Below are positions 22,926-55,176 of a stretch of 64,000 nt of DNA, one piece after another (within the stretch, counting starts at the first letter, position 1; each line of letters begins with the position of its first letter). Source of the stretch: Candidatus Magasanikiibacteriota bacterium (GTDB lineage Bacteria > Patescibacteriota > Patescibacteriia > Magasanikbacterales > GWA2-37-8). The notes under the pieces are model-generated. The model saw only the letters and a program-made list of their open reading frames with translations, ran no database searches and was not told the DNA's origin. Made by a program: the position numbers and the translations under genes. The DNA lies in contig JACOYB010000004.1 of assembly GCA_016182085.1 (NCBI GenBank), positions 339,923 through 403,922 on the forward strand. Reading direction: 5' to 3'.

Positions 22926-23972
22926 ATGATTTCCGGATTCTGGAAACAACTGAAAAAACCCATTTTTGTACTCGCGCCGATGGCCAATGTGACCGACGCT
23001 GCTTTTCGGCAGATTATTGCCAAATACGGCAAACCCGATGTGATGTTTACCGAATTTGTTTCTTGCGACGGATTAGTATCCCGAGGCAAAGAAAAATTAT
23101 TGGTAGATTTTATGTATACCGAAGCCGAACGCCCGATCGTGGCCCAAATTTTTGGTTCCAAACCGGAAAATTTTTATAAAACAGCTCTCTTAATTCAAGA
23201 GCTTGGTTTTGACGGGATAGATATAAATATGGGTTGTCCGGATAGAAATGTAGAAAAACAAGGTGCCGGCGCTTGCTTGATGAAAAATCCGCTGTTGGCG
23301 CAAGAAATTATAAAAGCTACTCAGCGCGGCGCGGGAAAGCTGCCAGTCTCTGTAAAAACTCGTATCGGTTATAACAAAAATACATTGTCCGATTGGCTGC
23401 CGTATCTGCTTGAAACCGAACTAGCAGCAATTACGGTTCACGCCCGTACCCGAAAAGAAATGTCTCTAGTGCCAGCCAACTGGGAGACAGTGCGTGATGC
23501 CGTAGCAATTCGTGATAAATATGATAGTTCAGAAAACAGGACTTTAATTTTGGGAAACGGCGATGTAAAAAATTTCGCCGAAGCAAATGAAAGAGTAAAA
23601 GAAACAGGTGCTGACGGCGTAATGATCGGCCGCGGTATTTTTGGCAATCCATGGTTGTTCGCCAATTGTCATTCTGAGCGGAGCAAAGCGGAGTCGAAGA
23701 ATCCCTTACACTCGGGTTTAAGGGATCCCTCCATTACAGTCGGGATGACATCGAGTGTTGAAGAAAAATTACGAGTAATGGTAGAACATACATATCTGTT
23801 TGAAAAAATTTTGGGGGAGCATAAAAATTTTGATATCATGAAAAAACATTACAAGGCCTATGTGAATGGTTTTGACGGCGCTAAAGAATTGCGAATCAAG
23901 CTGATGGAAGGCGCGAAAACCGCGGCGGATGTAGAGAAAATTATAACGGAATTCTTACAAAATTTGGATTGA
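22926..23972 (+). CDS. dus: tRNA-dihydrouridine synthase (Dus family) carrying an in-frame palindromic-element insertion
   Basis: FVLAPMANVTDAAFRQII, GIDINMGCP and GRGIFGNPWLF motifs. Start taken at the ATG at 22926 (MISGFWKQ); the tracker's 22806 start is an upstream extension. Residues about 246-275 (ANCHSERSKAESKNPLHSGLRDPSITVGMT) are encoded by a repeat-family copy. Confidence 0.85.
   Translation: MISGFWKQLKKPIFVLAPMANVTDAAFRQIIAKYGKPDVMFTEFVSCDGLVSRGKEKLLVDFMYTEAERPIVAQIFGSKPENFYKTALLIQELGFDGIDINMGCPDRNVEKQGAGACLMKNPLLAQEIIKATQRGAGKLPVSVKTRIGYNKNTLSDWLPYLLETELAAITVHARTRKEMSLVPANWETVRDAVAIRDKYDSSENRTLILGNGDVKNFAEANERVKETGADGVMIGRGIFGNPWLFANCHSERSKAESKNPLHSGLRDPSITVGMTSSVEEKLRVMVEHTYLFEKILGEHKNFDIMKKHYKAYVNGFDGAKELRIKLMEGAKTAADVEKIITEFLQNLD
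23666..23750. repeat. palindromic TGTCATyCyGAG...GGGATGACA element, copy A, inside the dus coding sequence and in frame
   Basis: TTGTCATTCTGAGCGGAGCAAAGCGGAGTCGAAGAATCCCTTACACTCGGGTTTAAGGGATCCCTCCATTACAGTCGGGATGACA. Confidence 0.7.
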
Positions 23973-24013
23973 TTTTTTTGTTTGTTGAGACTACTATAGT
24001 GTATAGTGTCCAA

Positions 24014-24106
24014 TTGTCATTCCGACCAAAGTGGAGGAATCCCTTAAACATAGCTTATTGTAGTAATTAAGTGTAAGGGATCCCTCGGCTACGCTCGGGA
24101 TGACAA
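24014..24106. repeat. palindromic element, copy B (intergenic, overlaps the annotated start of the PLD-family gene)
   Basis: TTGTCATTCCGACCAAAGTGGAGGAATCCCTTAAAC...TAAGGGATCCCTCGGCTACGCTCGGGATGACAA. Confidence 0.7.
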
Positions 24107-25215
24107 ACCATATGGAATTCAGTCATAAATTTTACAACACAACCGCTTTGGCCTGGGAAGGAATGCGCCAAGCAATTTTGGATGCCAAAAGTTCTGTGTA
24201 TTGGGAGATTTTTGCCCTTGTGGATGATTTAGCCGGTAAGCCGTTTATAGACTTGTTGTGCGCCAAGGCTCAGGCTGGACTAGACGTAAAACTTATTACC
24301 GACGCGATCGGCAGTTTTTATTTATCCAAAGATGCTATAAACCGTCTCAAAAAATCCGGTGTTAAATTTTTTATGTTCAACAACCTTCGTCCGGAACTGG
24401 CGTTGCAAAATTGGCTGCGCCGTGTCTGGCATCGCACGCACCGTAAAGTGCTTATTATAGATAGAGAAGTTGTATTTATTGGCGGTGTAAACGTGGCGCA
24501 ATATGCCGCTCTTTGGCATGATTTGCATTTGCGCTTGACCGGTAAAATTGTAATACCAATTTTATTTAGTTTTGCCAAGTCATATATTAAAGCCGGCGGG
24601 GATAAAAAAGATGTGGCCGATTTGCTTCGTCCGAAAATTTTTCCCAACCTCGAAGAAATCAAAGAAAAAATAAATTTTATTTTTCATTCCCCCTGGCGCG
24701 ATACGGTACGCTCGCCGTTTAAAAATTTTTACAAACAAGCGCTGGGTACGGCCAAAGAAAAGTTTAATCTACTCACGCCATACTATGTGCCGGACCGTCA
24801 TTTTTTGGAGTTAGTATCTCAGGCCAAAAAACGAGGCGTGAATGTTAATATTATGATTCCTTGGAGAACCGACGAACGCGTCATGCGTTATTTTGCCTCT
24901 ATGCTGTATGGTGTTTCATCCAAAGCCGGAGCTGTATTTTATTTTTTAAAGAATATGAATCACGGCAAAGCCGTAAGCGTGGATAATAAATTAGGCATGG
25001 TTGGCAGCGCCAATTTAACGCCGCGCAGTTTTTATATTAATCACGAAGCAGGCGTTACATTTTCAGATGAGCACATGGTGGAAGAATTAAATAATATTTT
25101 GGATGATTGGAAAAAAGAAGCTATGCCGCTTTCGGAAATAAACATAGGAAAGAAAGTAGGATGGACAAAGAGATTTAAAGACTGGTGGATGAATAAAATA
25201 CGCGATTATGTCTAA
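24100..25215 (+). CDS. phospholipase D superfamily protein with two HKD motifs (cardiolipin synthase-like)
   Basis: HRKVLIIDREVVFIGGVNV and NHGKAVSVDNKLGMVGSANL fit HxKxxxxD...GSxN twice. The true start may be the ATG at 24112 (MEFSHKF), since 24100-24106 belongs to repeat copy B. Confidence 0.7.
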   Translation: MTNHMEFSHKFYNTTALAWEGMRQAILDAKSSVYWEIFALVDDLAGKPFIDLLCAKAQAGLDVKLITDAIGSFYLSKDAINRLKKSGVKFFMFNNLRPELALQNWLRRVWHRTHRKVLIIDREVVFIGGVNVAQYAALWHDLHLRLTGKIVIPILFSFAKSYIKAGGDKKDVADLLRPKIFPNLEEIKEKINFIFHSPWRDTVRSPFKNFYKQALGTAKEKFNLLTPYYVPDRHFLELVSQAKKRGVNVNIMIPWRTDERVMRYFASMLYGVSSKAGAVFYFLKNMNHGKAVSVDNKLGMVGSANLTPRSFYINHEAGVTFSDEHMVEELNNILDDWKKEAMPLSEINIGKKVGWTKRFKDWWMNKIRDYV

Positions 25216-26449
25216 AAACTTCGGAGCATTTAACATGCCGCTGGCCGAGCGAATGCGCCCTAAAAATTTTAATGAGTTTGTCGGGCAATCAGATATCGTC
25301 GGGCAGGGAAAATTACTAAGAAAGCTGATAGAAAATGATCAGCTTTCTTCTATTATTTTTTGGGGGCCGCCCGGAGTAGGCAAGACAACCCTGGCGCAGA
25401 TTATGGCCGCGCAAACCAAATCTCGGTTTGTTTTGCTCTCCGCGGTTTCAAGTGGTAAGGAAGAATTAATGAAAATAATCAAGGAAGCAAAGAAAGTTTT
25501 GGAAGAACAAAATCAAAAAACTATTTTATTTATAGACGAAATTCATAGGTGGAACAAAGCCCAGCAGGACGCGTTATTGCCAGTGGTAGAAAAGGGGATA
25601 GTAATTCTTATTGGCGCCACCACCGAAAATCCGTCTTTTGAAATTATTGGCGCGCTTCTGTCTCGCTCCCGGGTTTTTATTTTAAAATATTTAAGCGAAG
25701 AAGATGTTGTCGCGATTATTAAAAATGCGTTAAAAGATAAAGAAAACGGTTTAGGAAATTTGAAAATCAATATAGAAAAGAAAACGATTGAACTTCTGGC
25801 TGAACTTGCCGGAGGGGATGCTAGAACCGCTTTAAATGGTTTGGAGTTGGCTGTAAAGGCTAAAGGCAGCAATAAAATAATTACTATTTCAAACGAAGAT
25901 ATAAAAGAAGCGTTGCAGCGCACGCATTTGGTCTTTGATAAACAAGGCGAGGAATTTTATAATCTAATTTCCGCGCTGCATAAATCCATGCGGGGTTCCA
26001 ATGCCGACGCGGCTTTGTATTGGCTGGCGCGCATGCTGGAGGGTGGGGCGGATCCGTTATATATTGCCCGCCGCGTAGTGCGGTTTGCCAGTGAAGATAT
26101 TGGCATGGCCAACAGCGAAGCCTTGGTGCAGGCAAATGCTGCTTTTGAAGCGTGTGATAGGCTGGGAATGCCCGAATGCAGTGTGCATTTGGCTCAGGCG
26201 GTGGTCTATTGCGCCAAATCTACTAAATCTAATTTGTTGTATCGGGCCTATGGAGAGGCGGCTAAAGACGCGCGAAACACATCGCATTTGGGCGTGCCAA
26301 TTCACTTGCGCAATGCGCCAACCAAATTTATGAAAAGTATCGGCTATGGCAAAGATTATAAATATTCTCCGGATTTTGATTATAAAGAGAGTCAGGATTA
26401 TCTTCCGCCGGAGTTAAAAGAAAAGAAGTATTTAACCAAAAATTCATAG
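25208..26449 (+). CDS. rarA: replication-associated recombination protein A (AAA+ ATPase RarA/MgsA)
   Basis: FVGQSDIVGQGKLLRKLIENDQLSSIIFWGPPGVGKTTLA Walker A, the IDEIHRWNKAQQDALLP sensor region, and a C-terminal MgsA helical domain. Overlaps the upstream gene by 8 nt. Confidence 0.85.
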   Translation: MSKNFGAFNMPLAERMRPKNFNEFVGQSDIVGQGKLLRKLIENDQLSSIIFWGPPGVGKTTLAQIMAAQTKSRFVLLSAVSSGKEELMKIIKEAKKVLEEQNQKTILFIDEIHRWNKAQQDALLPVVEKGIVILIGATTENPSFEIIGALLSRSRVFILKYLSEEDVVAIIKNALKDKENGLGNLKINIEKKTIELLAELAGGDARTALNGLELAVKAKGSNKIITISNEDIKEALQRTHLVFDKQGEEFYNLISALHKSMRGSNADAALYWLARMLEGGADPLYIARRVVRFASEDIGMANSEALVQANAAFEACDRLGMPECSVHLAQAVVYCAKSTKSNLLYRAYGEAAKDARNTSHLGVPIHLRNAPTKFMKSIGYGKDYKYSPDFDYKESQDYLPPELKEKKYLTKNS

Positions 26450-26551
26450 CTATCTTGACAATAGTTTATTTAGTGTCATAGTATACTGCGTTGTCAGACA
26501 AAGCTCAGAGATCCACAGACCCGGGTTCAATCCGGGAGAAGAGAGTTTGTC

Positions 26552-26953
26552 ATGTTGAAAGTCAAATGGCGTTCTGATGATGGTCAGGGCGAAGTTTGCC
26601 CTGATTCTGGCGGTCCTGTCACCCCCGACATGGTTGAAGAAATGGTCAGGGCGGCCATTGCCTTCGTGGCCAACCTTCGGTTCGTGGCCAAGCCTCAGAA
26701 GGTTTCAAAGGTTTCAGCCGTCTTTTTCATGGTGAGCAAGCCTCAAGACGTCATGGAAAAGCAGCGTAAGGTACTGCGGCAAAACAAGAAGCTGGGTACA
26801 GCTGATCCAGAGCCTTACCCTGTCTACGGATGGATTGAAGTCGCCGCGGATTCCAACCTGGCGAACATCATGTCCAAGTTCGCCCATGAGAAGGATCGGG
26901 TTGAACGTAGCACGGTATTTACCACCTTTATGATCCAGGCCATGAAGGTGTAG
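26552..26953 (+). CDS. hypothetical protein (133 aa) on a roughly 52% GC segment
   Basis: ORF with GC3-rich codons, preceded by TTGACA / TAGTAT promoter-like boxes, a tRNA T-arm-like hairpin CCCGGGTTCAATCCGGG and a purine-rich ribosome-binding site. No family recognised. Confidence 0.45.
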   Translation: MLKVKWRSDDGQGEVCPDSGGPVTPDMVEEMVRAAIAFVANLRFVAKPQKVSKVSAVFFMVSKPQDVMEKQRKVLRQNKKLGTADPEPYPVYGWIEVAADSNLANIMSKFAHEKDRVERSTVFTTFMIQAMKV

Positions 26954-27098
26954 AAAATCCTGGATAAGCATAATTTGTGTAGGAGGTCTGCAGCGTGCGG
27001 GCCAGAGCGGTTGGGCACGCGTGTTGTCTGGGAACGGTATCGTGCCGTTCCCTATACTAACAATTATTTGTACCTTGTAAAAATAATTGAGGAATAAA

Positions 27099-27128
27099 AA
27101 ATCACCTAACTTAGGTGGTTTTTTATTG
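27099..27128. terminator. bidirectional terminator hairpin AAAAAATCACCTAACTTAGGTGGTTTTTT
   Basis: Stem flanked by an A-run and a T-run. Confidence 0.7.
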
Positions 27129-27198
27129 GCGGCAATTTACTGGACTTTTTTGATGCGGGTGATAGAATTTATAGATAACTATTTTACCGTTAATTATT

Positions 27199-28434: not shown

Positions 28435-28477
28435 ATAACTTGTGGCTAAAAAGTAGCTATGCTATAATTTAACCTAT

Positions 28478-29206
28478 ATGTTAAGCTATTTTTGGGCGAC
28501 TTATTTGTATCAACCGTTATTTAACGCCCTGATTTGGATTTATTTAAATATTGCCGAGCGGAATATGGGGTGGGCTGTAGTGTGGCTCACTATTTTTTTG
28601 CGTATCATTCTGTTGCCGCTTACCATCATTTCCGAACGTGACGCGGCTAAACAAAAAGACGTGGAAGCGCAAGCAATTCAAGCGGCCAAAGCCTTTAAAA
28701 ATGATCTGGTAGCCCAAAAAGAAGAAATCAGGAAAATAATGAAAAAGCACCATGTGTCTCCCTGGGCAAAAGTGGTGGTATTAGGTTTTCAAGTGCTCGT
28801 TTTTTTGCTTTTGTACCAGGTCTTTATCCGCGGCATAACTGGCGAAAGAATTATCAAACTATTGTATCCGTGGATTGATTTCCCGGGGAAGATTAACGTG
28901 GATTTTTACGGATTTAATATCGGCAATTATCACGATACATTTTGGGCGGGAATTGTGGCCATTTATCTTTTCTTTTCTATTTATTTGGGAGAATTTTCCA
29001 GTCGCGGCAAGAAAGATCAGTCAAGAATTACGTTTTTATTCCTATTTCCCTTGTTTACCTTTATAGTGCTGTGGTTTTTGCCGATGGTAAAATCATTATT
29101 TATTTTGACAACCATGATATTTTCTGATATAATTTCTATTATCAGAAGAATGATTTTTCCGGAGAAAAAGGCGGAAGCGCCGGCCAAAACAGCTGCTAAA
29201 AAGTAA
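28478..29206 (+). CDS. yidC: membrane protein insertase YidC/Oxa1 family (short form)
   Basis: LYQPLFNAL...MGWAVVWLTIFLRIILLPLTI and MKKHHVSPWAKVVVLGFQVLVFLLLYQVF match the conserved YidC TM2/TM3 blocks. Confidence 0.75.
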   Translation: MLSYFWATYLYQPLFNALIWIYLNIAERNMGWAVVWLTIFLRIILLPLTIISERDAAKQKDVEAQAIQAAKAFKNDLVAQKEEIRKIMKKHHVSPWAKVVVLGFQVLVFLLLYQVFIRGITGERIIKLLYPWIDFPGKINVDFYGFNIGNYHDTFWAGIVAIYLFFSIYLGEFSSRGKKDQSRITFLFLFPLFTFIVLWFLPMVKSLFILTTMIFSDIISIIRRMIFPEKKAEAPAKTAAKK

Positions 29207-29220
29207 AATTAAAATAACCA

Positions 29221-29278
29221 ATGTCATCCTGAACAAGTTTTCGGGATCTAGATGCCGAAAACTTGTTCGGCATGACAA
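29221..29278. repeat. palindromic element, copy C
   Basis: ATGTCATCCTGAACAAGTTTTCGGGATCTAGATGCCGAAAACTTGTTCGGCATGACAA; arms are near-perfect reverse complements. Confidence 0.7.
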
Positions 29279-29293
29279 TTAACAGTAAAATCT

Positions 29294-29860
29294 ATGTCCG
29301 GAGATTCAATGGATAAATTAATGTATTCCTTTGTAATGGACGATGTTTTGAAAGGCCTGTTTATCAGTGTTCCGCCCGGATACGTGGCTTGTGTGTATGA
29401 TTTAGGCAGGGGAGTCTTAAAAAAAGTATTAACACCGGGACTTCATCTTAAAATTCCTTTTTGGCAAAAAGCAAAATTATTTAATACCCAGACGCTAGAA
29501 TATAGCATTTCCAGACAATTCAACGCTGAGCATGAAAGAGCGTTGGGTGATATTCCAATTGCGGCCGGTACAAAAGACGGCCAGCGAGTAGGGGTAGAAG
29601 GCACAATTCTGTTGCGTTTAGATGTTCATCAAGTACCTTCTATTTGGCAAACCATTGGTGAGGATTTTGTGGCCAAAATTGTCCGCCCGACTATTCGCAG
29701 CCGTGTACGTATGGTATTTAGCAAGTTTGATTATCAAGAAATAGTGGGAGCAAAAAGAGACGCGGTGGAAATGGAGCTTAAAAACGAGTTGGAACGCATA
29801 TTTTATGCCCGCGGTATTTATGTGGAAAATGTACTCTTAAGCGAGATAGGTAAGATTTAA
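29294..29860 (+). CDS. SPFH/band-7 domain protein (stomatin/HflC-like)
   Basis: PGYVACVYDLGRGVLKKVLTPGLHLKIPFWQKAKLFNTQ followed by an SPFH core. Confidence 0.65.
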   Translation: MSGDSMDKLMYSFVMDDVLKGLFISVPPGYVACVYDLGRGVLKKVLTPGLHLKIPFWQKAKLFNTQTLEYSISRQFNAEHERALGDIPIAAGTKDGQRVGVEGTILLRLDVHQVPSIWQTIGEDFVAKIVRPTIRSRVRMVFSKFDYQEIVGAKRDAVEMELKNELERIFYARGIYVENVLLSEIGKI

Positions 29861-29946
29861 TTTAGTGAAGAAATGCGGGAAAATATAAAATAATAGATGT
29901 AAAAAAGGCCCTTGACGGGGCTTTTTTGGTATGTTATTATCACTCA

Positions 29947-29973
29947 TAAGGAAAGAGTGATAAACATCAATTG
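29947..29973 (+). promoter_or_regulatory. CIRCE-like HrcA operator variant TTATCACTC-N9-GAGTGATAA
   Basis: Perfect 9-bp inverted repeat with a 9-nt spacer, 6 bp upstream of the hrcA ATG. The consensus is TTAGCACTC-N9-GAGTGCTAA. Confidence 0.7.
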
Positions 29974-29978
29974 TCTAT

Positions 29979-30659: not shown

Positions 30660-30704
30660 GGAGTAGGGCATAGTGAGTGATGAATAGTCAATAACTAAAA
30701 ATAT

Positions 30705-37877: not shown

Positions 37878-37908
37878 AAAAACATCCCGACTTAGTCGGG
37901 ATGTTTTT
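37878..37908. terminator. bidirectional terminator AAAAACATCCCGACTTAGTCGGGATGTTTTT (near-identical copy at 61699-61727)
   Basis: 9-bp stem flanked by A- and T-runs, lying between convergent genes. Confidence 0.8.
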
Positions 37909-37918: not shown

Positions 37919-38320
37919 TTACAACCTGTCATCCAAAGCCTTGTTTACCCATCTATCGGCTTCCTTGTTATTCTCACGTCTGGTATGTTTGAAGGTTGTT
38001 TTTTTAAAACCGCTGGCCAGATTAAAAGCCATAATAAATAATTTTTGCAGGCCCGGCTCCCGGACTTTGTATTGTCTGTTCATTTGTTTGGTTACGAGTT
38101 CGCTGTCTAAAATACATTCAACTTCAGTCGCGCCCAATTCCTTGGCTTTTTGCAGCGCGGAAATTAAAGCCGAATACTCAGCGTAGTTATTGGTTTGTTT
38201 TCCCAGCTATTGGCCATAGCCGGCAATAGTGTTGCCACTTGTGTCTTTTATGACCACGCCGAGAGCTGCCGGTCCGGGATTGCCTCTTGCGCCTCCGTCT
38301 GTGTATGATATAAGTTTCAT
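37919..38320 (-). pseudogene. rnhA: ribonuclease HI interrupted by a single in-frame TAG
   Basis: The minus strand translates as MKLISYTDGGARGNPGPAALGVVIKDTSGNTIAGYGQ, then TAG at 38207-38209, then LGKQTNNYAEYSALISALQKAKELGATEVECILDSELVTKQ...KHTRRENNKEADRWVNKALDD. This is a full-length RNase H fold (DGG...GNPGP, TNNxAEY, D...ADxLA). The tracker only reports the 72-aa C-terminal fragment. Confidence 0.7.
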
Positions 38321-38407
38321 ATTTGAAATGAGTGAATGAAGTAGACAGTGAAATATTTATAGATCGCTGCGAATGAGAATATATGCGGCGTAGCTCCTAT
38401 ATAATAT

Positions 38408-39826
38408 TTAGTAGTTTAGTTTCCAAATGCCCGGTTTATTTTTATCTTCAGGTATGAAATAAAATATTTTATTTTCAGAATCAGCCGCTGATTTTTTTAT
38501 TTTTTCATTTATGATTTCATGGCCAACGAGGTAGTAAGGAAATAAAGCCGCGGTCTTATCAGCCCAAGTAAGTCCCAAGGTGTTATGCTCATCGAGCGGC
38601 ACGACTTGTTCCAGATGCTCTCCAGATCGGCTGAGAAGGTATGGTTCCTCGTTTTGGCTATAGCTCCACAGTTCTAGCGGCGACCATAATAGCCACCAGT
38701 TGTTAAATTTTGATATAAAAAATTTATCAGCTTGAATTTTATATTTATAATTTCTACCCGTCAAAATCATTTTTGAATTTTTTTCTGTTTTTATCAGCGC
38801 CGTTTCTTGTCGAGCAATTAAAATGTGTACCTTGGTTTCTGAAGTTATGTCGCCACCCGCAACATCTAAATCCTCGGGAGTTAAGCGATTAAATTCGGAG
38901 CTAAACCCAAGGGTATTTTTAATAATCACATACTCTTGTTTTGATATGTCGTTTTGGATTGTCCATAACTGGCCATTTTCCATATGCCAATCCACATATT
39001 TATTTTCGGTTATTACCTGAGATTTACTCGTAATAGGCGAGTAGGCATATATATTTTCGCCAGTGCCATAGTAGAGCTGCGGTTCAATGGTATTAGACCA
39101 CTGGACTTTTTTAATGCCGGATAGTATTTGCGTCAAATCAGTCAGCCGAGATGGGTTGGATGCGTTAACAACCAACAGGCTGGCATAGCCGTTTTCCGCG
39201 GCGGCAGTTATGAGGGCGTAATTATTCTTTTCCGCCCAAATTATATCCAGAGGTTTGCGGGTATTGATTGTAGATATTAATATATTTTGTCCCAGGTTAT
39301 TATTTCGCAACCAAATTTCCGTGTCGTTTCCTTTTATCAGGGAATACAATATGAACTGGCCATTGTAAGAAAGGAAAAAATTATCTATTTTTTCGTTAAC
39401 TAATAATTGGGGTTTGTTTTTTTTAAGCAGGCGTATGTCTTTTATGTAGTAGGTCTGCTTGTTTTTTACTTCAATTTCCTTGGTCCAGTCCAGATATCCC
39501 GAAGCGGCAATGCGTAAGTTATATTTTGCCGGAACGATGTTGTTTAATCTGATGGGTAATTTTTCCTGTAGCCGTATGCCGTTTAAGTAGACCTCGGTGT
39601 CTTCGGGTTCTATATCAATATTTATAGACCCGGTTTCTTTAAGCAGTCCGTTATGCCAATCATAGCGGTATCCGGCCGTATAGAGGATGATGGTCGGGGA
39701 AATAATAAAAAATAATACGACACATAGAACAAGCAAGGTTAAACGTATCGGACGGGTAAATTTTGTGCCGGGATATTCCATGTAATTATATAATAATTGA
39801 ATCTTGCCACTTTTGACTTGAAGCAA
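38408..39826 (-). CDS. hypothetical membrane-anchored protein (472 aa)
   Basis: N-terminal TM helix LTLLVLCVVLFFIISPTIILYTAGY, then a large beta-rich extracytoplasmic region; host composition. Confidence 0.6.
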   Translation of the reverse strand: MLQVKSGKIQLLYNYMEYPGTKFTRPIRLTLLVLCVVLFFIISPTIILYTAGYRYDWHNGLLKETGSINIDIEPEDTEVYLNGIRLQEKLPIRLNNIVPAKYNLRIAASGYLDWTKEIEVKNKQTYYIKDIRLLKKNKPQLLVNEKIDNFFLSYNGQFILYSLIKGNDTEIWLRNNNLGQNILISTINTRKPLDIIWAEKNNYALITAAAENGYASLLVVNASNPSRLTDLTQILSGIKKVQWSNTIEPQLYYGTGENIYAYSPITSKSQVITENKYVDWHMENGQLWTIQNDISKQEYVIIKNTLGFSSEFNRLTPEDLDVAGGDITSETKVHILIARQETALIKTEKNSKMILTGRNYKYKIQADKFFISKFNNWWLLWSPLELWSYSQNEEPYLLSRSGEHLEQVVPLDEHNTLGLTWADKTAALFPYYLVGHEIINEKIKKSAADSENKIFYFIPEDKNKPGIWKLNY

Positions 39827-44443: not shown

Positions 44444-44622
44444 AAGTTGCAGAATTAATGAATTTTGTTATTATATAGCAAATCACGCTTAAAATCAAGG
44501 TTGGTTTATATGGGCTAAAGCCGCATATAAACTCATTCGCTCGGAAATATCCAGTATAAATATTTTTAGCTCGCAAGCGATCAAAAATATTTTCCTGTCT
44601 ATCTCACTCACTCATTTCGTTT

Positions 44623-45063
44623 ATGAAAGTAATTTTGATTCAAAATGTGCCAAATTTTGGCAAGATTGATGATATAAAAGAAGTATCCGAAGGGTATGCT
44701 CGGAATTTTTTGTTTGCCAAAAATTTGGCTGTAGCCGCCTCGCCAAATATTTTAAAAGAAATAGAGGCGCGCCGAAATCGCAAGTTGAAAAATACGGAAA
44801 ACGAATTGCGCGAGCAGCAAGCGATTGCCCAGCGGCTGGACGGCCGAGAATTTACGCTTAAAGAAAAAACCAGTGCCGCCGGCGCGTTATATGCGGCAGT
44901 TGGTCCGCAAAAAATTTTGGAAATACTCAAAAAATCAGGATTTACCATAGATAAAGATAAAATAGCGATGAAACCGATAAAAGAAGCGGGGGAGTACAAG
45001 GCTAAAATTAAATTTTCCTACGGCCTGGAAGCGGAAATAATTGTTAATGTTATTAAGCTTTGA
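44623..45063 (+). CDS. rplI: 50S ribosomal protein L9
   Basis: MKVILIQNVPNFGKIDDIKEVSEGYARNFLFAKNLA, and a 146-aa length. Confidence 0.88.
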   Translation: MKVILIQNVPNFGKIDDIKEVSEGYARNFLFAKNLAVAASPNILKEIEARRNRKLKNTENELREQQAIAQRLDGREFTLKEKTSAAGALYAAVGPQKILEILKKSGFTIDKDKIAMKPIKEAGEYKAKIKFSYGLEAEIIVNVIKL

Positions 45064-45089: not shown

Positions 45090-45175
45090 TTGTCATTCTG
45101 AGCAAAGCGAAGAATCTCTGTCCAGCTGATCAAGATAGTACTGATAGAGATCCTTCATTTCATTCAGGATGACAA
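45090..45175. repeat. palindromic element, copy D
   Basis: TTGTCATTCTGAGCAAAGCGAAGAATCTCTGTCC...GAGATCCTTCATTTCATTCAGGATGACAA; about 29-nt arms are imperfect reverse complements. Confidence 0.7.
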
Positions 45176-45212: not shown

Positions 45213-46844
45213 ATGCAAAAAACAAAGTATATTTTTGTAATTGGGGGCGTGTTAAGCGGTGTCGGAAAAGGTGTAACAACTGCGTCTATTGGCCGCATTT
45301 TTAAAAATAGAGGTTTTAAAGTTTCCGCGATTAAAATTGATCCGTATATCAATGTGGATGCCGGCACTATGAACCCGGTAGAACACGGCGAGGTGTTTGT
45401 GACCGAAGACGGAGATGAAACCGACCAAGACCTGGGAAACTATGAACGATTTTTGGAAACTGATATTTATTCCTATAATTACATGACTACCGGACGGGTA
45501 TATTTAAGCGTGATTGAGAAAGAAAGAGGCATGCAGTATAAAGGCAAATGCGTGGAAGTGGTGCCGCATATTCCCATGGAAGTCATACATCGTATAAAAA
45601 ATGCCGCGGCTAAAACCAAAGCCGAAATAATGGTAATTGAGATCGGAGGCACGGCCGGGGAATATCAAAACATCCTCTTTTTGGAAGCGGCGCGCATGAT
45701 GAAGCTGGAAAACCCTGGTGATGTGGCTTTTGTACTCGTAAGTTATTTGCCAGTGCCCGGACACTTGGGAGAAATGAAAACCAAACCAACTCAGTATGCC
45801 TCTAGAACTTTAAACGCAAGCGGTATCCAAGCTGATTTTATTGTAGCTCGCGGTCCGGCCGCGCTGGATAAGCCCAGACGAGAAAAATTAGCAGTGCTGT
45901 GCGGGTTGCGCAACGAAGATGATGTGATTGCTGCGCCAGATGTTAAAAGTATTTATGAAATACCGCAGGTACTGGAAAAACAAAAGTTTGCCGAGTCAAT
46001 AATGAAACGGTTAAATATAAAATCACGCAAGGTAGTTGAAAAAAATTGGGATAAATTTGTAAATAAAATAGACAAAATTACGACTTCAGTAAAAATTGCC
46101 GTGATTGGCAAGTATTTTGCCACTGGTGATTATACCTTGGCCGATTCCTATATTTCGGTAATTAACGCCATTAAGCACGCGGCCTGGCACAATGGCGTAA
46201 ACGCGGAAATGACTTGGATTGATTCGGAAGAGTATGAGAAACACCCTGAGAAAATTAAAGAATTGGGTAATTACGATGCGGTGATTGTTCCGGGTGGATT
46301 TGGCACAAGAGGCATAGAGGGTATAATTTCAACAATTAAGTATGCTCGTGAACACAATCTGCCATATTTAGGTTTGTGTTATGGTATGCAGCTCGCAACT
46401 ATAGAATTTTCCCGTAATGTATTGGGTTATAAAGACGCGCACACCGTGGAATGCAATCCAAAAAGCAAGAATTTGATTATAAATATTAATTTAACTCAAG
46501 CGGAAAATATAAAAAATAATCGGTATGGCGGCACGATGCGTCTCGGCGCCTATGATTGCGTGCTAAAACAAGGAAGCATTTCCCGTAATTTATATGGCGC
46601 GGAAAAGATCAGCGAACGCCATCGTCATCGTTATGAATTTGATAACAAATATAGAGATGAGATGGAACAAAAAGGCATGATCGTAACAGGTGTCAATCCG
46701 CAATCAAATTTAGTGGAAATTATTGAAATAAAAAATCATCCATATTTTGTCGGAGTGCAATTTCATCCTGAGTTTAAATCAAGATTTTTAGAGCCACACC
46801 CATTGTTTGTTGGGTTGGTGAAAGCAGCTTTGAAGAATAAATAA
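45213..46844 (+). CDS. pyrG: CTP synthase
   Basis: MQKTKYIFVIGGVLSGVGKGVTTASIG, and a C-terminal glutamine amidotransferase domain with GLCYGMQ and HPEF. Confidence 0.95.
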   Translation: MQKTKYIFVIGGVLSGVGKGVTTASIGRIFKNRGFKVSAIKIDPYINVDAGTMNPVEHGEVFVTEDGDETDQDLGNYERFLETDIYSYNYMTTGRVYLSVIEKERGMQYKGKCVEVVPHIPMEVIHRIKNAAAKTKAEIMVIEIGGTAGEYQNILFLEAARMMKLENPGDVAFVLVSYLPVPGHLGEMKTKPTQYASRTLNASGIQADFIVARGPAALDKPRREKLAVLCGLRNEDDVIAAPDVKSIYEIPQVLEKQKFAESIMKRLNIKSRKVVEKNWDKFVNKIDKITTSVKIAVIGKYFATGDYTLADSYISVINAIKHAAWHNGVNAEMTWIDSEEYEKHPEKIKELGNYDAVIVPGGFGTRGIEGIISTIKYAREHNLPYLGLCYGMQLATIEFSRNVLGYKDAHTVECNPKSKNLIININLTQAENIKNNRYGGTMRLGAYDCVLKQGSISRNLYGAEKISERHRHRYEFDNKYRDEMEQKGMIVTGVNPQSNLVEIIEIKNHPYFVGVQFHPEFKSRFLEPHPLFVGLVKAALKNK

Positions 46845-48261: not shown

Positions 48262-48266
48262 TCAAT

Positions 48267-49778: not shown

Positions 49779-49887
49779 TTAAATACACTATCTATGTAAG
49801 CTGCCTTCCACCGCTCGTTTTGTTTTTAATCTTGCGTGTTGTAAATGGGGGAGGAGAATGCTATAATTTATATATAATTTTCTATTC

Positions 49888-50925: not shown

Positions 50926-50937
50926 ATAACGTGCAGT

Positions 50938-51621
50938 ATGATTTTTGTGATAGTGCCAGCTTATAATGAAGAAAAAAGTATCGGTCGCGTTTTGGGCGGT
51001 TTTTTTGAAACACAGTTTAAAGACGAAAGTTTAAAAAATATGAAAGTAGTCGTAGTAGATGACGGGTCGATAGATAATACCGTGCAGATTGCAAGTCAGG
51101 CCGGAGCGACAGTGTTGCGGCATGAAATAAATAGAGGGCAGGGCGCGGCGTTGCAAACCGGCAATGAATACGCGCTTGAACAGGGAGCGAGTATTGTAGT
51201 GCATTTTGACGCGGATGGACAGTTTAATCCGGTAGATATAGAATCGGGTTTAATGACTATGAAAAACAAGGGTGTGGATGTGGTGCTTGGCTCTCGTTTT
51301 TTGGACAATCGTTCAAAGATGCCGTGGTCAAAGAAATATCTGCTTTTGCCAATAAGCAGATTTGTTAATCGGTTGCTCACCGGTTTAAAACTAACCGACG
51401 CGCATAATGGATTTAGAATTTTATCGCGTAAGGCGCTCCAAAAAATTAATATTTCCCAAGACAGAATGGCGCATAATTCCGAGATTGTAAAACAGATCAA
51501 GCAACATAATCTGTTGTTTGCCGAACATCCGGTAGAAGTTGTGTATGCCGAATATGGCCAGGGAGTTGGCGGGGGGTTGAAAATTTTACAGGATTTACTA
51601 GCAGCTAAATTTTTGAGGTAA
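50938..51621 (+). CDS. family 2 glycosyltransferase (dolichyl/polyprenyl-phosphate sugar transferase-like)
   Basis: MIFVIVPAYNEEKSIGRVL...VVVDDGSIDNT...FDADGQ (DXD). Confidence 0.8.
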   Translation: MIFVIVPAYNEEKSIGRVLGGFFETQFKDESLKNMKVVVVDDGSIDNTVQIASQAGATVLRHEINRGQGAALQTGNEYALEQGASIVVHFDADGQFNPVDIESGLMTMKNKGVDVVLGSRFLDNRSKMPWSKKYLLLPISRFVNRLLTGLKLTDAHNGFRILSRKALQKINISQDRMAHNSEIVKQIKQHNLLFAEHPVEVVYAEYGQGVGGGLKILQDLLAAKFLR

Positions 51622-51622
51622 T

Positions 51623-51964
51623 ATGTTTGTGATTCAGATAATACTTTTCATCTTTTTTCTCTTTGCTTTTGTAAAGGTGGTTGGTCGTTTTAAGGCCGGA
51701 GAAATTGGAAAAATGACTGCTTTAGGCTGGTGTTTGTTTTGGGTGGCAGCGATGCTCGTGGTGATTTTGCCAAATTCCACTGCTCAGGTGGCAAAACTAG
51801 TCGGTATTGGAAGAGGCGCTGATCTAGTGGTGTATCTAGCCTTGGCAGCTTTATTTTTTATCATGTTCAGGATGATGGTAAAAATTGAGCGATTCGGCAA
51901 AGAAATTACCGCACTCACTAGAAAAATTTCTCTACAAGAAAAAGATAAGCCAACAGCCAAGTAG
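51623..51964 (+). CDS. small two-TM membrane protein commonly paired with GT2 polyprenyl-phosphate transferases (DUF2304-like by context)
   Basis: 113 aa with two hydrophobic helices; start is 2 nt after the GT2 stop. Confidence 0.45.
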   Translation: MFVIQIILFIFFLFAFVKVVGRFKAGEIGKMTALGWCLFWVAAMLVVILPNSTAQVAKLVGIGRGADLVVYLALAALFFIMFRMMVKIERFGKEITALTRKISLQEKDKPTAK

Positions 51965-51965
51965 T

Positions 51966-53147
51966 ATGCGTATAGCTCATGTAGTTTCCACGTTTCCGCC
52001 GCATTTAGGCGGAATGGGCAGTGTTTGCGAGAGCGAAGCCAAGGCGCTGGCTGAACAAGGATATGACGTAACAATTTTTACTTTAAAATACCCGGGTAAA
52101 ATTAATTCTGAAGCAGATAAAAGATTTCCTTTCAAAGTAGTCAGGCTGCGGCCGCTTATTGGATTTGGCGATGCCGGACTGGTTCCTCAACTACTTTGGA
52201 AAATAGGCAAAAATTTCGACCTTGTTCATTTGCATTATCCTTTTTATGGCGGGGCCGAGTGGTTGTCTTTTTTACAGATACCATTAATTATTACGTATCA
52301 CATGGATGCGCAGACAGCCAGTTTAAAGTTTCTGATCCAGAAACTATACGATGCAGTTTGGCCAAAGCGGTTATTTGCTAAAGCTAAAAAAATAATTACG
52401 GTTGACGCGGCATTTAGAAATTCAAAGTTTTTACAAAATGTATCTTCTGGAAAAATCACGGAAATTCGCAATGGCGTTGATACAGGTATTTTTAAGCCGC
52501 AATCGGCAGATTTGGATAAGTTGGGCCTATCTGATTTAAAAGATAAGCAGAGCTTGAAATTACGTCGAGCTTCGAAAGAAGAAAATGAATTTTCTTCTTT
52601 GCTCACCTCTAGTAATTATAAAAAAATAATTTTATTTGTTGGCAATTTATTGCCCTTGAAACGTCTAGATTTATTGATTAGCGCGGTTAAATTATTAAAT
52701 AACCCGGAGGCAGTATTGGTAGTGGTGGGCGGGGGAGATAGCCTGAAAAAATATAAACAAATGGCCAAGGATTTGGGTGTTGGTTCTCAGGTAGTTTTTG
52801 CCGGCGCTTGTGACAATAAGGAAAAATTGGTTCAATATTATAATGCCGCATATTGTGTGGCCGTACCTTCGGATTATGAATCTTTTTCACTAGTAGCTGC
52901 CGAAGCTATGGCTTGCGGCAAGCCGCTTATTTTGAGTGATTTGCCGGTGTTTAAAAATAATTTTAACCAAGCAGTTTTTTTTCAGAAGGGTTCGGTTGAT
53001 AGTTTGAAAGACGCTTTAACGCGAGCATTATCTTTATCAAGCGAAGAAAGAAAGAAAATGGGTGAATGGGGGATAGCCAAAGCAAATACGGATTTTTCTT
53101 GGGATAATCATATTAATAAATTAAAAGCAGTGTATGGGCAAGTTTGA
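51966..53147 (+). CDS. family 4 (GT-B) glycosyltransferase
   Basis: MRIAHVVSTFPPHLGGMGSV N-terminus and the C-terminal EAMACGKPLILSD motif. Start taken at the ATG at 51966 (MRIAHV) rather than the tracker's 51885, which would overlap the preceding gene. Confidence 0.8.
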   Translation: MRIAHVVSTFPPHLGGMGSVCESEAKALAEQGYDVTIFTLKYPGKINSEADKRFPFKVVRLRPLIGFGDAGLVPQLLWKIGKNFDLVHLHYPFYGGAEWLSFLQIPLIITYHMDAQTASLKFLIQKLYDAVWPKRLFAKAKKIITVDAAFRNSKFLQNVSSGKITEIRNGVDTGIFKPQSADLDKLGLSDLKDKQSLKLRRASKEENEFSSLLTSSNYKKIILFVGNLLPLKRLDLLISAVKLLNNPEAVLVVVGGGDSLKKYKQMAKDLGVGSQVVFAGACDNKEKLVQYYNAAYCVAVPSDYESFSLVAAEAMACGKPLILSDLPVFKNNFNQAVFFQKGSVDSLKDALTRALSLSSEERKKMGEWGIAKANTDFSWDNHINKLKAVYGQV

Positions 53148-53955
53148 TTACGAAAAATCAATTTGGGGTCATGGTCGGGCAAGCATCAAGTTAAGCTCGC
53201 CGACCAGTTTTAGGTTGCGCCAAAGTTTGAGTTCAATTAAAGCTCTCGCCGGCGGCGCCAAAGTTATGGAACTTGGCAGTGGCGCGGGGCAGTTTATACG
53301 TGAAATTAAGGCCATCAGACCGGACTTAGAGTGTTATGGGTCTGATATTAGCGAACACGCTATTAACTTAGCCAAACAGGCAAATGACGGCGTGCAATAT
53401 GACTTAAGCGCTGAAAAGAAATTGCCATACGCGGATAATTTTTTTGATGCTATTTTGATTTTTGACGTCTTGGAACATGTGGAAAATCCGGGCGCGATTT
53501 TTTCCGAAGTGCACAGAACTTTAAAAAGCGGAGGGGTCTTTTATGCCTTTGTGCCGTGTGAAGGGGATTTTTTGTCTTTTTGGAATTTACTGCGAAAATT
53601 CGGGGTGGGAGCAAACCTTACAAAAATGTATGCTGGGCATATTAACCGATTTTCCCGCGAAGAATTGGTGGCCACGGTAAAAGCTTTCGGGTTTGAAATT
53701 AAAAAAATTAGATATAGCGAACATATATTAGGACAGTTTTTAGGCCTGGCTTCATTTTTTTCCATGGATAGATTTGCCAAGAAGAATAATCTGCAACAGG
53801 TAAATAATGAGCAGTATTTTTACGATTTAAGCCAAAAGGGCGGAGGAGTGTTGCGGCTGGTAAAAAATTTGGTAAATACGGCGGTGGCGTTAGAGTCTAT
53901 GCTTTTTTCCAGGCTGCCATCGCCAAATGTGCATTTAACAGTTATTAAGAAATAG
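53134..53955 (+). CDS. class I SAM-dependent methyltransferase
   Basis: VMELGSGAGQF (motif I), CYGSDIS, DAILIFDVLEHVENP. Confidence 0.75.
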   Translation: MGKFDYEKSIWGHGRASIKLSSPTSFRLRQSLSSIKALAGGAKVMELGSGAGQFIREIKAIRPDLECYGSDISEHAINLAKQANDGVQYDLSAEKKLPYADNFFDAILIFDVLEHVENPGAIFSEVHRTLKSGGVFYAFVPCEGDFLSFWNLLRKFGVGANLTKMYAGHINRFSREELVATVKAFGFEIKKIRYSEHILGQFLGLASFFSMDRFAKKNNLQQVNNEQYFYDLSQKGGGVLRLVKNLVNTAVALESMLFSRLPSPNVHLTVIKK

Positions 53956-53965
53956 CCAACTAAAC

Positions 53966-54114
53966 TGTCATCCCGAGCGAGCCTCGCGGCGACGCCCGCC
54001 CGTACCGAACGTGTACGTTCGGGCGGGAGGGATCTCTGTCTGTCATTCCCATCGCAATGGGAATCCAGTATCCGGTCAGATTGTGTGGATTCCCGCTTTC
54101 GGCGGGAATGACAA
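53966..54114. repeat. palindromic elements, tandem copies E1 and E2
   Basis: CTGTCATCCCGAGCGAGCCTCGCGG...GGGAGGGATCTCTGTC, then TGTCATTCCCATCGCAATGGGAATCC...GGATTCCCGCTTTCGGCGGGAATGACAA; both are GC-rich hairpin-formers. Confidence 0.65.
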
Positions 54115-54126
54115 ATAAATTTTAAT

Positions 54127-54732
54127 ATGCGCATCATTCATATAATTCCTTCGGCTTTTGAATACTTTAATGATATACGGTCTCAAGCTTTTAAATTATT
54201 AGGCGGCTTGCATAAATTGGGAGTGGAAACAGAAGCGTTTACCTTGCAATATAACCAGCCAAGTAAATCCATGAAAGCCGAAGTTACCGAAGATTCATCT
54301 TCAGTTCATAACTACGCGGGAAATATTAATCTTGATAATTTGGCAGAACATTTTTCTGGTTTTGATATTGCGCATCTCCATTGTCCATTTTTAGGAATGG
54401 CTAGAAAGATAATTGATTGGAAAAAATTACATCCTAATTTTCCTTTGGTTGTAACATATTACCGAGATGTGCGCTTTGAAGATATATTTAGTATTTTTAT
54501 TAAACTATACAATGCTTATTATTTACCAAAAATTTTTACCCTGGCGAGCGTGGTGGTTTGCTATAATTTTGAGTCTTTTAGAAAGACCGCGGGCCTTAGA
54601 TCGTTACATGATAAAAGTAGTTTAGCAATTTTAGATGAGATAGAGCTGGGTGAAGAGGGGGAAAGCTTAAAACCAACAGAGTTGGTTGCGGCAAAAACGC
54701 TTGCGGTGTATAATAGTATCCTTAGAGCTTAA
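54127..54732 (+). CDS. hypothetical protein (201 aa), possibly a degenerate GT-B N-terminal domain
   Basis: MRIIHIIPSAFEYFNDIRSQAFKLLGGLHKLGVE resembles GT4 N-termini; otherwise unrecognised. Confidence 0.45.
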   Translation: MRIIHIIPSAFEYFNDIRSQAFKLLGGLHKLGVETEAFTLQYNQPSKSMKAEVTEDSSSVHNYAGNINLDNLAEHFSGFDIAHLHCPFLGMARKIIDWKKLHPNFPLVVTYYRDVRFEDIFSIFIKLYNAYYLPKIFTLASVVVCYNFESFRKTAGLRSLHDKSSLAILDEIELGEEGESLKPTELVAAKTLAVYNSILRA

Positions 54733-54819
54733 CCTTAATATATATAGTTACACATATATATACTCATTCGCTCGGAAGAAATTAAATGCATTTAATTTCT
54801 TCTCTCACTTATTTCGTAT

Positions 54820-55128
54820 ATGGGAAGATTTAAAAAAGGACTATTTTTAGGAAGTTTAGTTGGCGCGGCGCTTATGTGGTTGAATGCTACCCCAAAGGGG
54901 AAAGAAATGCGAGAAAAAATGATGTCTCAGGCCAATGATTTGTATGGCCAGCTTAAGGAAAGCCTAAAAAAATTAGATGGACCTACCAGAGAAATGTATG
55001 ATGCTTTGGTAGAAAGAGCCGTAGAGGAATACGCAGCCAAAAAAGAGATGGCCATGGAAATAAAAAATCAATTGGTGCGAGAATTAAAGAAACGATGGAA
55101 AGAATTGGAAAAAGAAATTAAAAAATGA
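54820..55128 (+). CDS. small membrane-anchored protein, YtxH-like (DUF948-like)
   Basis: MGRFKKGLFLGSLVGAALMWL TM helix followed by a charged helical tail. Confidence 0.5.
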   Translation: MGRFKKGLFLGSLVGAALMWLNATPKGKEMREKMMSQANDLYGQLKESLKKLDGPTREMYDALVERAVEEYAAKKEMAMEIKNQLVRELKKRWKELEKEIKK

Positions 55129-55141
55129 CCTGCAACAGCGG

Positions 55142-55176
55142 AGTCATCCTGAGCTGGCGTGAAGGATCTTCGTCAA
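55142..55176. repeat. palindromic element, partial copy F
   Basis: AGTCATCCTGAGCTGGCGTGAAGGATCTTCGTCAA; a terminator hairpin ATAGCCTCGAACTAATCGGGGCTATTTTTTTT follows. Confidence 0.5.

Follow-up and report, generated by a model that had tools for sequence, protein, structure and literature searches.

In this study, a 64-kb stretch of DNA (hereafter the window) from a housekeeping region of Candidatus Magasanikbacteria, a "tiny-genome" host of the Patescibacteria or candidate phyla radiation (CPR), was found to carry a family of small dispersed palindromic repeats. The window contains five inverted dimers (copies A, B, C, D and E2) and two single units (E1 and F), that is, 12 units of roughly 28 nt that each form a mini-hairpin. 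These loci are a known kind of repeat and not a new kind of element, being members of the CGTC/TGTC-tagged superfamily of repetitive extragenic palindromic (REP) sequences. Taken together, they are probably non-coding, non-autonomous REP-type repeats of this superfamily that are moved in trans. What is new is modest: the repeats occur in Patescibacteria, across more than 20 phyla and in phages of the tailed kind, and dus, the gene for tRNA-dihydrouridine synthase, has a site that is recurrently occupied. The likeness to REP and bacterial interspersed mosaic element (BIME) repeats that the original prediction had drawn for a dispersed hairpin-forming family was apt, and all six loci that it listed are present, with coordinates off by at most 1 nt.

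Architecture and covariation of the unit

The basic unit consists of a TGTC tag, a stem starting with AT (ATTCY/RGAAT or ATCCY/RGGAT), a loop and a 3-nt tail, and a dimer is made of two such units in inverted orientation, with the tags outward and a short spacer between. In the window, the tag is TGTC in 11 of the 12 units and AGTC in F, and the stem starts with AT in every unit. The stems of E2 and C are perfect over 8 bp; those of the other units span nine positions, comprising five perfect base pairs, a G.A/A.G interruption and two further pairs. The loops are 4 and 5 nt long in E2, a GAA triloop in the consensus unit, and long with nested hairpins in the left unit of A and in E1. The tail is CCA in both units of E2 and CCC, CTC, CTA or CTT in the other window units; across phyla, CTC is the commonest tail and the modal unit is 21 nt long. 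The ends of complete elements read TGTCATyCyGA...TCrGrATGACA, and E1 and F have just one such end. The GATC sequence that had been taken for a central core is really the junction of the tail G with the ATCC stem in one unit type, and E2 has no GATC.

Pairing within the units was counted in 159 distinct elements from the loci of the pattern scan given below, for those halves that the search pattern left free. The left unit was ATTCT/AGAAT in 111 elements and ATTCC/GGAAT in 32, and the right unit was ATCCT/AGGAT in 114 and ATCCC/GGGAT in 25, with four mismatched cases on each side. In an alignment of the elements (A2), the unit or "cloverleaf" model paired 95.7% of the cells, compared with 86.7% for one long hairpin. 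Pair 37-78 of the long hairpin was unpaired (A.C) in 58 of 60 sequences of this alignment, while columns 37 and 78 pair inside their own units as U-A and C-G. Furthermore, pair 94-104 showed 16 double changes from G-C to A-U, where the long-hairpin model gave only one-sided G-U changes. Loop expansions and indels in the two arms were independent of each other, and loop and spacer lengths were highly variable. Within-unit pairing together with these independent expansions indicates that the conserved structure is the unit, on either strand. Each unit thus holds its own Watson-Crick stem across phyla through compensatory changes, and the covariation supports unit hairpins over a single long hairpin. 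The conserved secondary structure that the original prediction had expected on alignment was therefore found. In the consensus, two of the three frames are stop-free on each strand.

An idea that the elements act as strand-specific RNA, which arose from G.U wobbles on the plus strand, was dropped as a general rule, because 173 copies showed no orientation bias. What looked like a "wobble" on the plus strand and an "A.C mismatch" in the long hairpin is one compensated pair within each unit, and the apparent wobble is a by-product of the unit structure.

The copies were also recovered by a covariance model, R1, that was trained on 60 elements from other organisms and phyla, with zero window copies, and was run over the window with filters off. 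The E-values were 9e-18 for D, 7e-16 for B, 5e-14 for A, 3e-6 for E2, 4e-5 for C and a weak 5e-4 for F. No further match below E = 1 was obtained over the 64 kb, and the single unit E1 was missed by this dimer model. Folded as RNA, the complete copies surpassed dinucleotide shuffles by a wide margin, with z scores of -6.7 for B, -9.2 for C, -5.1 for D and -4.5 for E2; A gave -2.3. The terminal 8-mers on their own were not enriched over shuffles, so that the non-random signal lies in the paired architecture. In Rfam, the only window matches at the gathering threshold were three tRNAs; at E<=10 there was no match for positions 23600-24160 and only noise on an array of elements. As for the very high density that had been claimed, about 12 units in 64 kb are comparable with REP-rich genomes, but the elements are unevenly distributed and a close relative has none in 16.8 kb. 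Two near-identical hairpins, AAAACATCCCGAyTTAGTCGGGATGTTTT, lie at 37879-37907 and 61699-61727 between runs of A and T, and their stems have the 9-mer CATCCCGAC in common with the element ends. They were not accepted as family members and were treated as ordinary bidirectional terminators, a coincidence or a collapsed element both being conceivable.

Relationship to known repeat families

The CGTC REPs were defined by Di Nocera, De Gregorio and Rocco (2013, BMC Genomics 14:522; PMC3733652). They are described there as having a CGTC and often a TGTC tag, stems of 8-9 bp that begin with A-T and T-A, loops of 4-5 nt and a 3-nt tail that is mostly CCA. They occur mostly as inverted dimers, include intragenic copies, and are reported to have no association with a transposase gene. 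Four families are distinguished there, CGTC-1 to CGTC-4, of which CGTC-1 comprises Neisseria dRS3 and the Rickettsia palindromic element (RPE) RPE-6 and CGTC-4 is RPE-4, and the repeats are placed in five phyla. The loci in the window share with this superfamily the CGTC/TGTC 5' tag, the A-T/T-A stem start, the short loop of E2 and of the consensus unit, and the 3-nt tail (CCA in E2), as well as the prevalence of inverted dimers (five, against two single units), in-frame intragenic copies and the lack of an adjacent transposase. Moreover, the intragenic peptides in Additional file 3 of the paper include VIPAKAGI, SFPRKRES, DSRLRGND, RHSELVSGS and WIPWSNHGMT, and the inserts in Dus (CHSPKKGNPDN...DSRSGGND..GMT and CHSER...GMT) are the same translations as in this peptide list, CHSER... 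being like RHSELVSGS. E2 matches the CGTC REP architecture exactly. Membership is clear for E2 and holds at the superfamily level for the other copies, whose stems have a tandem G.A interruption and whose loops vary more than in the published families. A further difference lies in the hosts, which here are Patescibacteria, with more than 20 phylum-level groups and tailed-phage contigs added by the scan.

E2 (54041-54113, plus strand; R1 E=3e-6, z -4.5) is an inverted dimer of the dRS3/CGTC-1 type with 8-bp perfect stems, reading TGTC-ATTCCCAT-CGCA-ATGGGAAT-CCA and, on the minus strand, TGTC-ATTCCCGC-CGAAA-GCGGGAAT-CCA. dRS3 is a 20-bp unit, ATTCCCNNNNNNNNGGGAAT, with the consensus ATTCCC-N8-GGGAAT, and stands in inverted pairs around an RS spacer of 19-214 bp; together these form the architecture of the NIMEs (neisserial intergenic mosaic elements), which were called Neisseria-specific in 2007 (PMC1797815). 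The left unit of E2 fits this consensus exactly, and among the window copies only E2 has the dRS3/NIME form, ATTCCC-ATCGCAAT-GGGAAT plus ATTCCC-GCCGAAAGC-GGGAAT (N9), separated by a spacer of 24 nt; the stems of A, B, C, D and F are of other kinds. The layout of dRS3, spacer and inverted dRS3 is shared with NIMEs, as are clusters or arrays (E1 with E2, and loci L011 and L023 elsewhere). Unlike NIMEs, the other window copies have ATTCY/ATCCY stems and longer loops, and the window holds no long arrays, filamentous prophage or IS110/Piv-type gene.

With RPE-4 and RPE-6 of Rickettsia the elements share an in-frame palindromic repeat in a housekeeping gene that adds a peptide at a tolerant part of the protein, and one tRNA-modification gene of Rickettsia carries an RPE ending in ...GMT. 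However, the host here belongs to the CPR and not to the Rickettsiales, the dimer is of another subtype, and only one of the seven window copies is intragenic. The REP, BIME and REPIN elements of E. coli and Pseudomonas likewise have a tagged hairpin unit, tandem arrays, intergenic positions after genes and a presumed single-strand DNA substrate. As here (ATTC and ATCC), their inverted dimers combine two alternating unit types (Y and Z), and a compensated pair in the stem sets the two types apart. In contrast to those elements, the tag in the window is TGTC instead of GTAG or GTGG, and no REP-associated tyrosine transposase (RAYT) or other Y1 HUH enzyme was found near any copy.

Small dispersed inverted repeats that can be co-transcribed and form RNA hairpins are also known as Correia (NEMIS) and ERIC elements, to which the original prediction had compared the family. 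Those are MITEs, or miniature inverted-repeat transposable elements, with long terminal inverted repeats (TIRs), target-site duplications (TA for Correia) and a fixed interior, whereas the window elements are dimers of autonomous, self-folding tagged units with a freely varying spacer, single units exist and no target duplication was seen, which makes the analogy one with the wrong kind of element. Integron attC sites, finally, are also imperfect palindromes with conserved ends and a variable centre directly after stop codons. The window elements differ from them in having no RYYYAAC/GTTRRRY core sites and no IntI, their neighbours are syntenic housekeeping genes, and one copy is intragenic.

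The dus linker, the other copies and turnover between relatives

Copy A (23667-23750, plus strand; 84 nt, R1 E=4.8e-14) is an inverted dimer that lies in frame inside dus (22926-23972, plus strand; 348 aa, identical to P0001). Its left unit (23667-23705) has the tag TGTC, the stem ATTCT...AGAAT and the tail CCC, and its right unit (23722-23750) reads TGTC-ATCCC...GGGAT-CCC on the minus strand. A Dus with PF01207 from a Candidatus Magasanikbacteria metagenome-assembled genome in NCBI is 100% identical to the window Dus. The copy is read through and encodes 28 residues, CHSERSKAESKNPLHSGLRDPSITVGMT (Dus 248-275), which, by alignment to PDB 1VHN, follow GNPWLF, the last TIM-barrel motif, and fall within the linker that joins the TIM barrel to the helical domain at the C-terminus. 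In an AlphaFold (AF2) model of the protein (pLDDT 88.4, pTM 0.87), the sole stretch below 50 is residues 257-273, within the insert. Copy A is thus predicted from this model to occupy a disordered inter-domain linker, where it appears to be tolerated.

A survey of 120 homologues revealed four forms of this linker: 12 aa (the majority), 8 aa (AGKTPTIE), 19 aa and occupied. The occupied alleles always have short-linker flanks of the 8-aa type and are always in the same frame (CH...MT), although the inserts vary in subtype and length between genomes. The insert is patchily distributed, a rough tree of Dus made by neighbour joining (NJ) requiring 13 or more changes of state, and the element-bearing allele is found in different Dus clades. 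An empty site (L151) reads GCC GGC AAA ACA CCG and a filled one (L152) reads GCC GGC TGT CAT...AGG ATG ACA CCG; comparison of the two showed no target duplication. The dus of L153 holds a full CGTC-1 dimer and, directly after it, a terminus that was left over, GGAATGACA. We read the linker as one old site, at which elements were replaced or re-inserted beside resident ends and from which the allele spread by recombination; alternatively, repeated site-specific insertion may have occurred. The 12-aa linker of the relative L001 had been considered as a decayed element, but its similarity at the DNA level was judged coincidental, because the 12-aa type is conserved in most homologues.

Further palindromic inserts, also in frame, were observed at two other sites in dus genes of Magasanikbacteria (L155 10001-11155, the dus of GCA_030650025.1, P0104; columns 105-129 and 295-305 of the Dus alignment A1), and one gene carries three different elements. 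One of these inserts is a perfect GTAG-type hairpin, GTAGGGGCGGGGTCACCCCGCCCCTAC (SRGGVTPPLR), and the other is CCCGCCGTAGCTCGTCGGAGGCGAGCGTAGGCGGG, inside a KYSK...GG insert.

The remaining copies occupy spacers between genes. Copy B (24015-24105, plus strand; 91 nt, z -6.65, E=7e-16) is an inverted dimer between dus and a PLD-family gene (PLDc_2; 24112-25215, plus strand), with the left unit TGTC-ATTCCGACCAAAGTGGAGGAAT-CCC and the right unit, on the minus strand, TGTC-ATCCCGAGCGTAGCCGAGGGAT-CCC. Copy B had been said to overlap the start codon of the latter gene. The first ATG of this open reading frame (ORF), at 24100, does lie within the element, but the starts of relatives align with the ATG at 24112, which is 6 nt downstream of copy B and is probably the true start. 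Copy C (29222-29277, plus strand) is a short dimer of 56 nt without a spacer (z -9.2, E about 4e-5), with the stems ATCCTG/CGGGAT and ATGCCG/CGGCAT, and stands between yidC (28478-29206) and a Band_7/SPFH gene (29294-29860). Copy D (45091-45174, plus strand; inverted dimer, 84 nt, z -5.1, E=9e-18) lies between rplI (44623-45063) and pyrG (45213-46844), consists of TGTC-ATTCTGAGCAAAGCGAAGAAT-CTC and, on the minus strand, TGTC-ATCCTGAATGAAATGAAGGAT-CTC, and is the window copy nearest to the cross-phylum consensus.

The locus at 53966-54114 had been described as a tandem pair. It actually consists of the single unit E1 with a long GC-rich loop, an orphan TGTC tag (54037-54040) and the E2 dimer of another subtype. 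E1 (53966-54036, plus strand; TGTC-ATCCC...GGGAT-CTC) starts 10 nt past the stop of a methyltransferase gene (53134-53955) and folds locally and not as a dimer (z -1.4). Its loop (53975-54028) contains a nested GC-rich palindrome, CCCGCCCGTACCGAACGTGTACGTTCGGGCGGG, in a genome of roughly 40% GC. The nested palindrome and the orphan tag suggest that one element inserted beside or into another. E2 ends 13 nt before an ORF at 54127. Copy F had been taken for a partial copy; it is a complete single unit, AGTC-ATCCTGAGCTGGCGTGAAGGAT-CTT (55142-55170, plus strand), with a weak R1 match (E=5e-4 for 55142-55207), and lies between the ytxH stop (55128) and a bidirectional intrinsic terminator (55179-55215).

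The genes of the window include dnaG, rpoD, murG, ECF (extracytoplasmic function) sigma factors, typA, a Ser/Thr kinase, dus, the PLD-family gene, mgsA, gdh, yidC, the Band_7 gene, hrcA-grpE-dnaK-dnaJ, era, rplI, pyrG, glycosyltransferases, recJ, lepA and murJ. The elements occupy most of the short spacers of co-directional genes, in the orders dus, B, PLD; yidC, C, Band_7; rplI, D, pyrG; methyltransferase, E1/E2, ORF 54127; and ytxH, F, terminator and the oppositely directed recJ.

Comparison with relatives showed that copies are gained or lost among closely related Magasanikbacteria genomes. The relative L001, whose Dus is 90% identical and whose synteny is conserved, has zero copies in 16.8 kb: its dus has no insert and overlaps the PLD gene, and no element lies between its yidC and Band_7 genes. 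The relative L002 (Dus 81% identical) has three copies, of which only the one in dus is common with the window and two are elsewhere; its site B is empty (a 33-nt gap), and its site C has a short unit-like remnant, GTCATTCTAAAACAAATTTAGGATG.

Several other features of the window were noted. A 55-nt imperfect inverted repeat (15826-15880 and 16321-16375, arms 440 nt apart) sits in an 800-nt gap between the gene for a 1232-aa protein and typA/bipA, which measures 159 nt in L001 and 300 nt in L002; no Pfam family matched an ORF inside it (16004-16291, minus strand), and the region may be a separate MITE-like insertion. A perfect palindrome, TTTGTATACACTAGTGTATACAAA, occurs twice, at 9475-9505 and 9556-9586 (82 nt apart), in an operator-like position upstream of a small HTH_17 (excisionase-type) gene (9015-9374, minus strand). 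An upstream motif, ATATAnACTCATTCGCTCGGAA ... CTCACTCAyTCATTTCGTaTATG, at 44500-44625, 54735-54822 and, on the minus strand, 38290-38415, continues into the start codons of rplI, of ytxH and of an ORF on the minus strand and may represent a promoter with a pyrimidine-rich leader lacking a Shine-Dalgarno sequence. Finally, in two matches that resemble promoters (9-10 of 12), at 54108-54137 and 24020-23993 (minus strand), the element end ATGACA counts as the -35-like hexamer, and element ends could fortuitously create weak outward promoters.

Distribution, movement and alternative explanations

A scan for the pattern of the dimer ends returned 27 stretches from IMG/VR and at least 120 from GTDB contigs with one genome per species, the taxa of the latter being taken from the record titles. 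Related copies thus exist in relatives and in more than 20 phyla, and the similarity is not the local duplication that would have refuted the original prediction. Among the matches listed, the TGTC dimer occurs in more than 20 phylum-level groups. These matches include, within the Patescibacteria, Magasanik-, Wolfe-, Roizman- and Saccharibacteria and Parcubacteria. Beyond the Patescibacteria, they include Chloroflexota, Acidobacteriota, Nitrospirota, Nitrospinota, Bacteroidota, Ignavibacteria, Chlorobi, Bacillota, Planctomycetota, Verrucomicrobiota, Kiritimatiellae, Omnitrophota, Elusimicrobiota, Gemmatimonadota, Deinococcota, Melainabacteria, Bdellovibrionota, Desulfobacterota/Deltaproteobacteria and Alpha-, Beta- and Gammaproteobacteria. 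Intragenic copies in other phyla lie in pheT, purL, murB and the gene of an AFG1 ATPase, much as the 2013 paper reported such copies for other genes. On plasmids of Planktothrix agardhii (NZ_LR882951.1 15372-15448, NZ_LR882964.1 15455-15531 and AP017994.1 8089-8165), copies with about 78% identity to the consensus lie inside genes annotated as PglX (BREX methyltransferase) and MmeI-type restriction-modification genes.

The IMG/VR matches (L004-L030) are tailed-phage contigs, and 15 of the 27 have the major head protein phrog_212 in common (for example L013 5956-14186, L021 and L028); a portal protein also occurs among them. Some of these contigs carry four to five dimers per 12-14 kb. Tandem arrays with spacers of roughly 10 nt were seen in L011 (8545-8970) and L023 (8923-9530), the latter contig being bacterial-looking, with ABC-F and cspA neighbours. 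A search of a cultured-phage collection gave no match. Phages may be a vehicle of spread between hosts. In a limited literature search, no description of these repeats mentioning CPR or Patescibacteria was found, and searching by raw sequence strings returned primer matches only. The same 12-nt ends and compensated unit stems in many phyla and in one tailed-phage lineage raise the tentative possibility that all TGTC/CGTC-tagged units form a single, essentially pan-bacterial superfamily. If this were true, the mobilising activity would have to be either universally conserved, in the form of an enzyme of replication or repair that works on tagged hairpins, or brought from phylum to phylum by phages.

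The association with a RAYT, TnpA(REP) or IS200-like transposase for which a test had been proposed was not found in the sequence covered here. A profile hidden Markov model for RAYT, TIRYT and IS200 proteins, built from the sequences in Additional file 5 of the 2013 paper, gave nothing at E<=1 in the window and 155 loci (1.1 Mb of element-bearing sequence). Among the 47 of the 55 window ORFs of at least 90 aa that were scanned, no transposase, integrase or recombinase Pfam family was detected; the remaining eight were assigned by read-off, by homology or by synteny. When 913 ORFs from 147 element-bearing loci were clustered all against all, no transposase cluster and no enriched gene family emerged. 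In the same 1.1 Mb, no insertion sequence (IS) with the same ends was found that could serve as a parent, and flank composition indicated no target-site duplication at any copy.

It is rather unlikely that the units are sites, on DNA in duplex or cruciform form, that are selected for binding or recombination by a protein of the host or of a phage, such as recombinase targets for allele exchange, as proposed for dRS3/NIME arrays, or BIME-like nucleoid or gyrase sites. Each unit is a dyad (ATTCY-N-RGAAT) that would suit a dimeric binder, and the filamentous phages of Neisseria integrate at dRS3, which has also been proposed as a site for a recombinase (PMC1797815). The enrichment of elements in one tailed-phage lineage points the same way, and the presence of the element-bearing dus allele in different clades is compatible with recombination. 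However, the scanned ORFs of the window included neither a recombinase or integrase nor an IS110-type gene, and the 147 element-bearing loci show no enrichment of such genes. Copy numbers from zero to several among near relatives are hard to square with a required chromosomal function, and the loop and spacer lengths are highly variable.

A primary function as RNA, in terminators, attenuators or 3'-end stabilisers of mRNA under selection, is unlikely as well. The hairpins are stable (-28 to -40 kcal/mol), five of the seven copies lie in strings of co-directional genes at 10-42 nt past a stop codon, folding of the plus strand is favoured over that of the minus strand by 1.7-4 kcal/mol, and REPs of E. 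coli are known mRNA stabilisers (PMC6006769). Nevertheless, a 3' T-run is absent from all seven copies, whose 3' flanks read, for instance, AACCAT, ATTAAC, AATGTG and AATAAA, and a terminator scan called none of them, although the same scan called the genuine terminators at 55179-55215 and 29902-29927. The orientation relative to neighbouring genes was random in 173 copies from many phyla (++ 27, -- 31, +- 13, -+ 14), which gives no general indication of a strand-specific terminator or stabiliser role, although individual copies may differ. Moreover, one copy is intragenic, B stops 6 nt and E2 13 nt short of a start codon, and L001 has no copies at the same operon junctions. The structure that is conserved is the mini-hairpin of the unit on either strand and not a strand-specific fold. 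The terminator or stabiliser role suggested by the original prediction is therefore unsupported.

Classical MITEs, that is, derivatives that arose by internal deletion from a DDE insertion sequence whose TIRs are TG...CA, after the manner of Correia and ERIC, would account for the termini TGTCAT...ATGACA (5'-TG/CA-3'), the lengths of 56-91 nt and the dispersed copies. This origin is very improbable, because target-site duplications were seen neither at any copy nor in the comparison of filled and empty sites, the single units E1 and F exist, the arms fold independently with their own indels and compensatory pairs, and no IS with these ends occurs in the 1.1 Mb, in line with the lack of an associated transposase reported for the published family (PMC3733652). 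Chance or purely local duplication, for which one could cite the unenriched 8-mers and the fact that A and B, 264 nt apart, are the most similar pair, can practically be discarded in view of E-values down to 9e-18 from a model trained on other phyla and of copies in four separate regions across 31 kb as well as in relatives, phages and more than 20 phyla.

Several points also weigh against the reading as CGTC/TGTC-tagged REPs moved in trans. In most units, five perfect base pairs are followed by a tandem G.A/A.G and two further pairs, the loop measures from 3 nt to over 20 nt and the tail is CTC or CCC, whereas the published CGTC families have stems of 8-9 bp and loops of 4-5 nt. A clean insertion does not fully account for the difference between filled and empty dus sites, since AAA ACA is replaced and a target duplication is lacking, so that homologous recombination of an element-bearing allele, in place of transposition, could explain the patchiness. 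No mobilising enzyme was found, so the mechanism of spread is proposed by analogy with RAYTs and REPs (PMC6006769). The window contains no identical pair of copies, which would mark recent transposition, and the analysis covers just 64 kb of a contig that is at least 410 kb long.

On balance, selfish or near-neutral REP-type DNA is the best-supported view of these loci. The units would do their work as DNA, folded into single-strand hairpins or cruciforms, and a structure-specific enzyme that reads the tag and the hairpin may copy or move them in trans, by analogy with RAYTs and GTAG-REPs; a RAYT-like HUH nuclease encoded elsewhere and another enzyme are both candidates. New copies may land preferentially at or next to resident copies, which would explain the E1/E2 cluster, the tandem arrays and the different subtypes in the same frame of the dus linker. 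Copies would then persist where they are near-neutral, and effects on mRNA would be secondary.

These findings extend the host range of the repeat family to the streamlined, host-dependent Patescibacteria, to more phyla and to phages. The repeats account for odd inserts of 20-30 aa and for spurious small ORFs (CHSER..., VILSEAK..., SFRAK..., ...RMT) in CPR and many other genomes, and for annotation it follows that the ATG within copy B is probably not the start of the PLD-family gene. The unit-level covariation is clean evidence that the tagged unit hairpin is the selected structure, and the inter-domain linker of Dus, being naturally polymorphic and repeatedly occupied, could be used for studying insertion or replacement. 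If the pan-bacterial reading is true, a minimal CPR genome with several polymorphic copies and very few candidate enzymes could reveal the mobilising activity.

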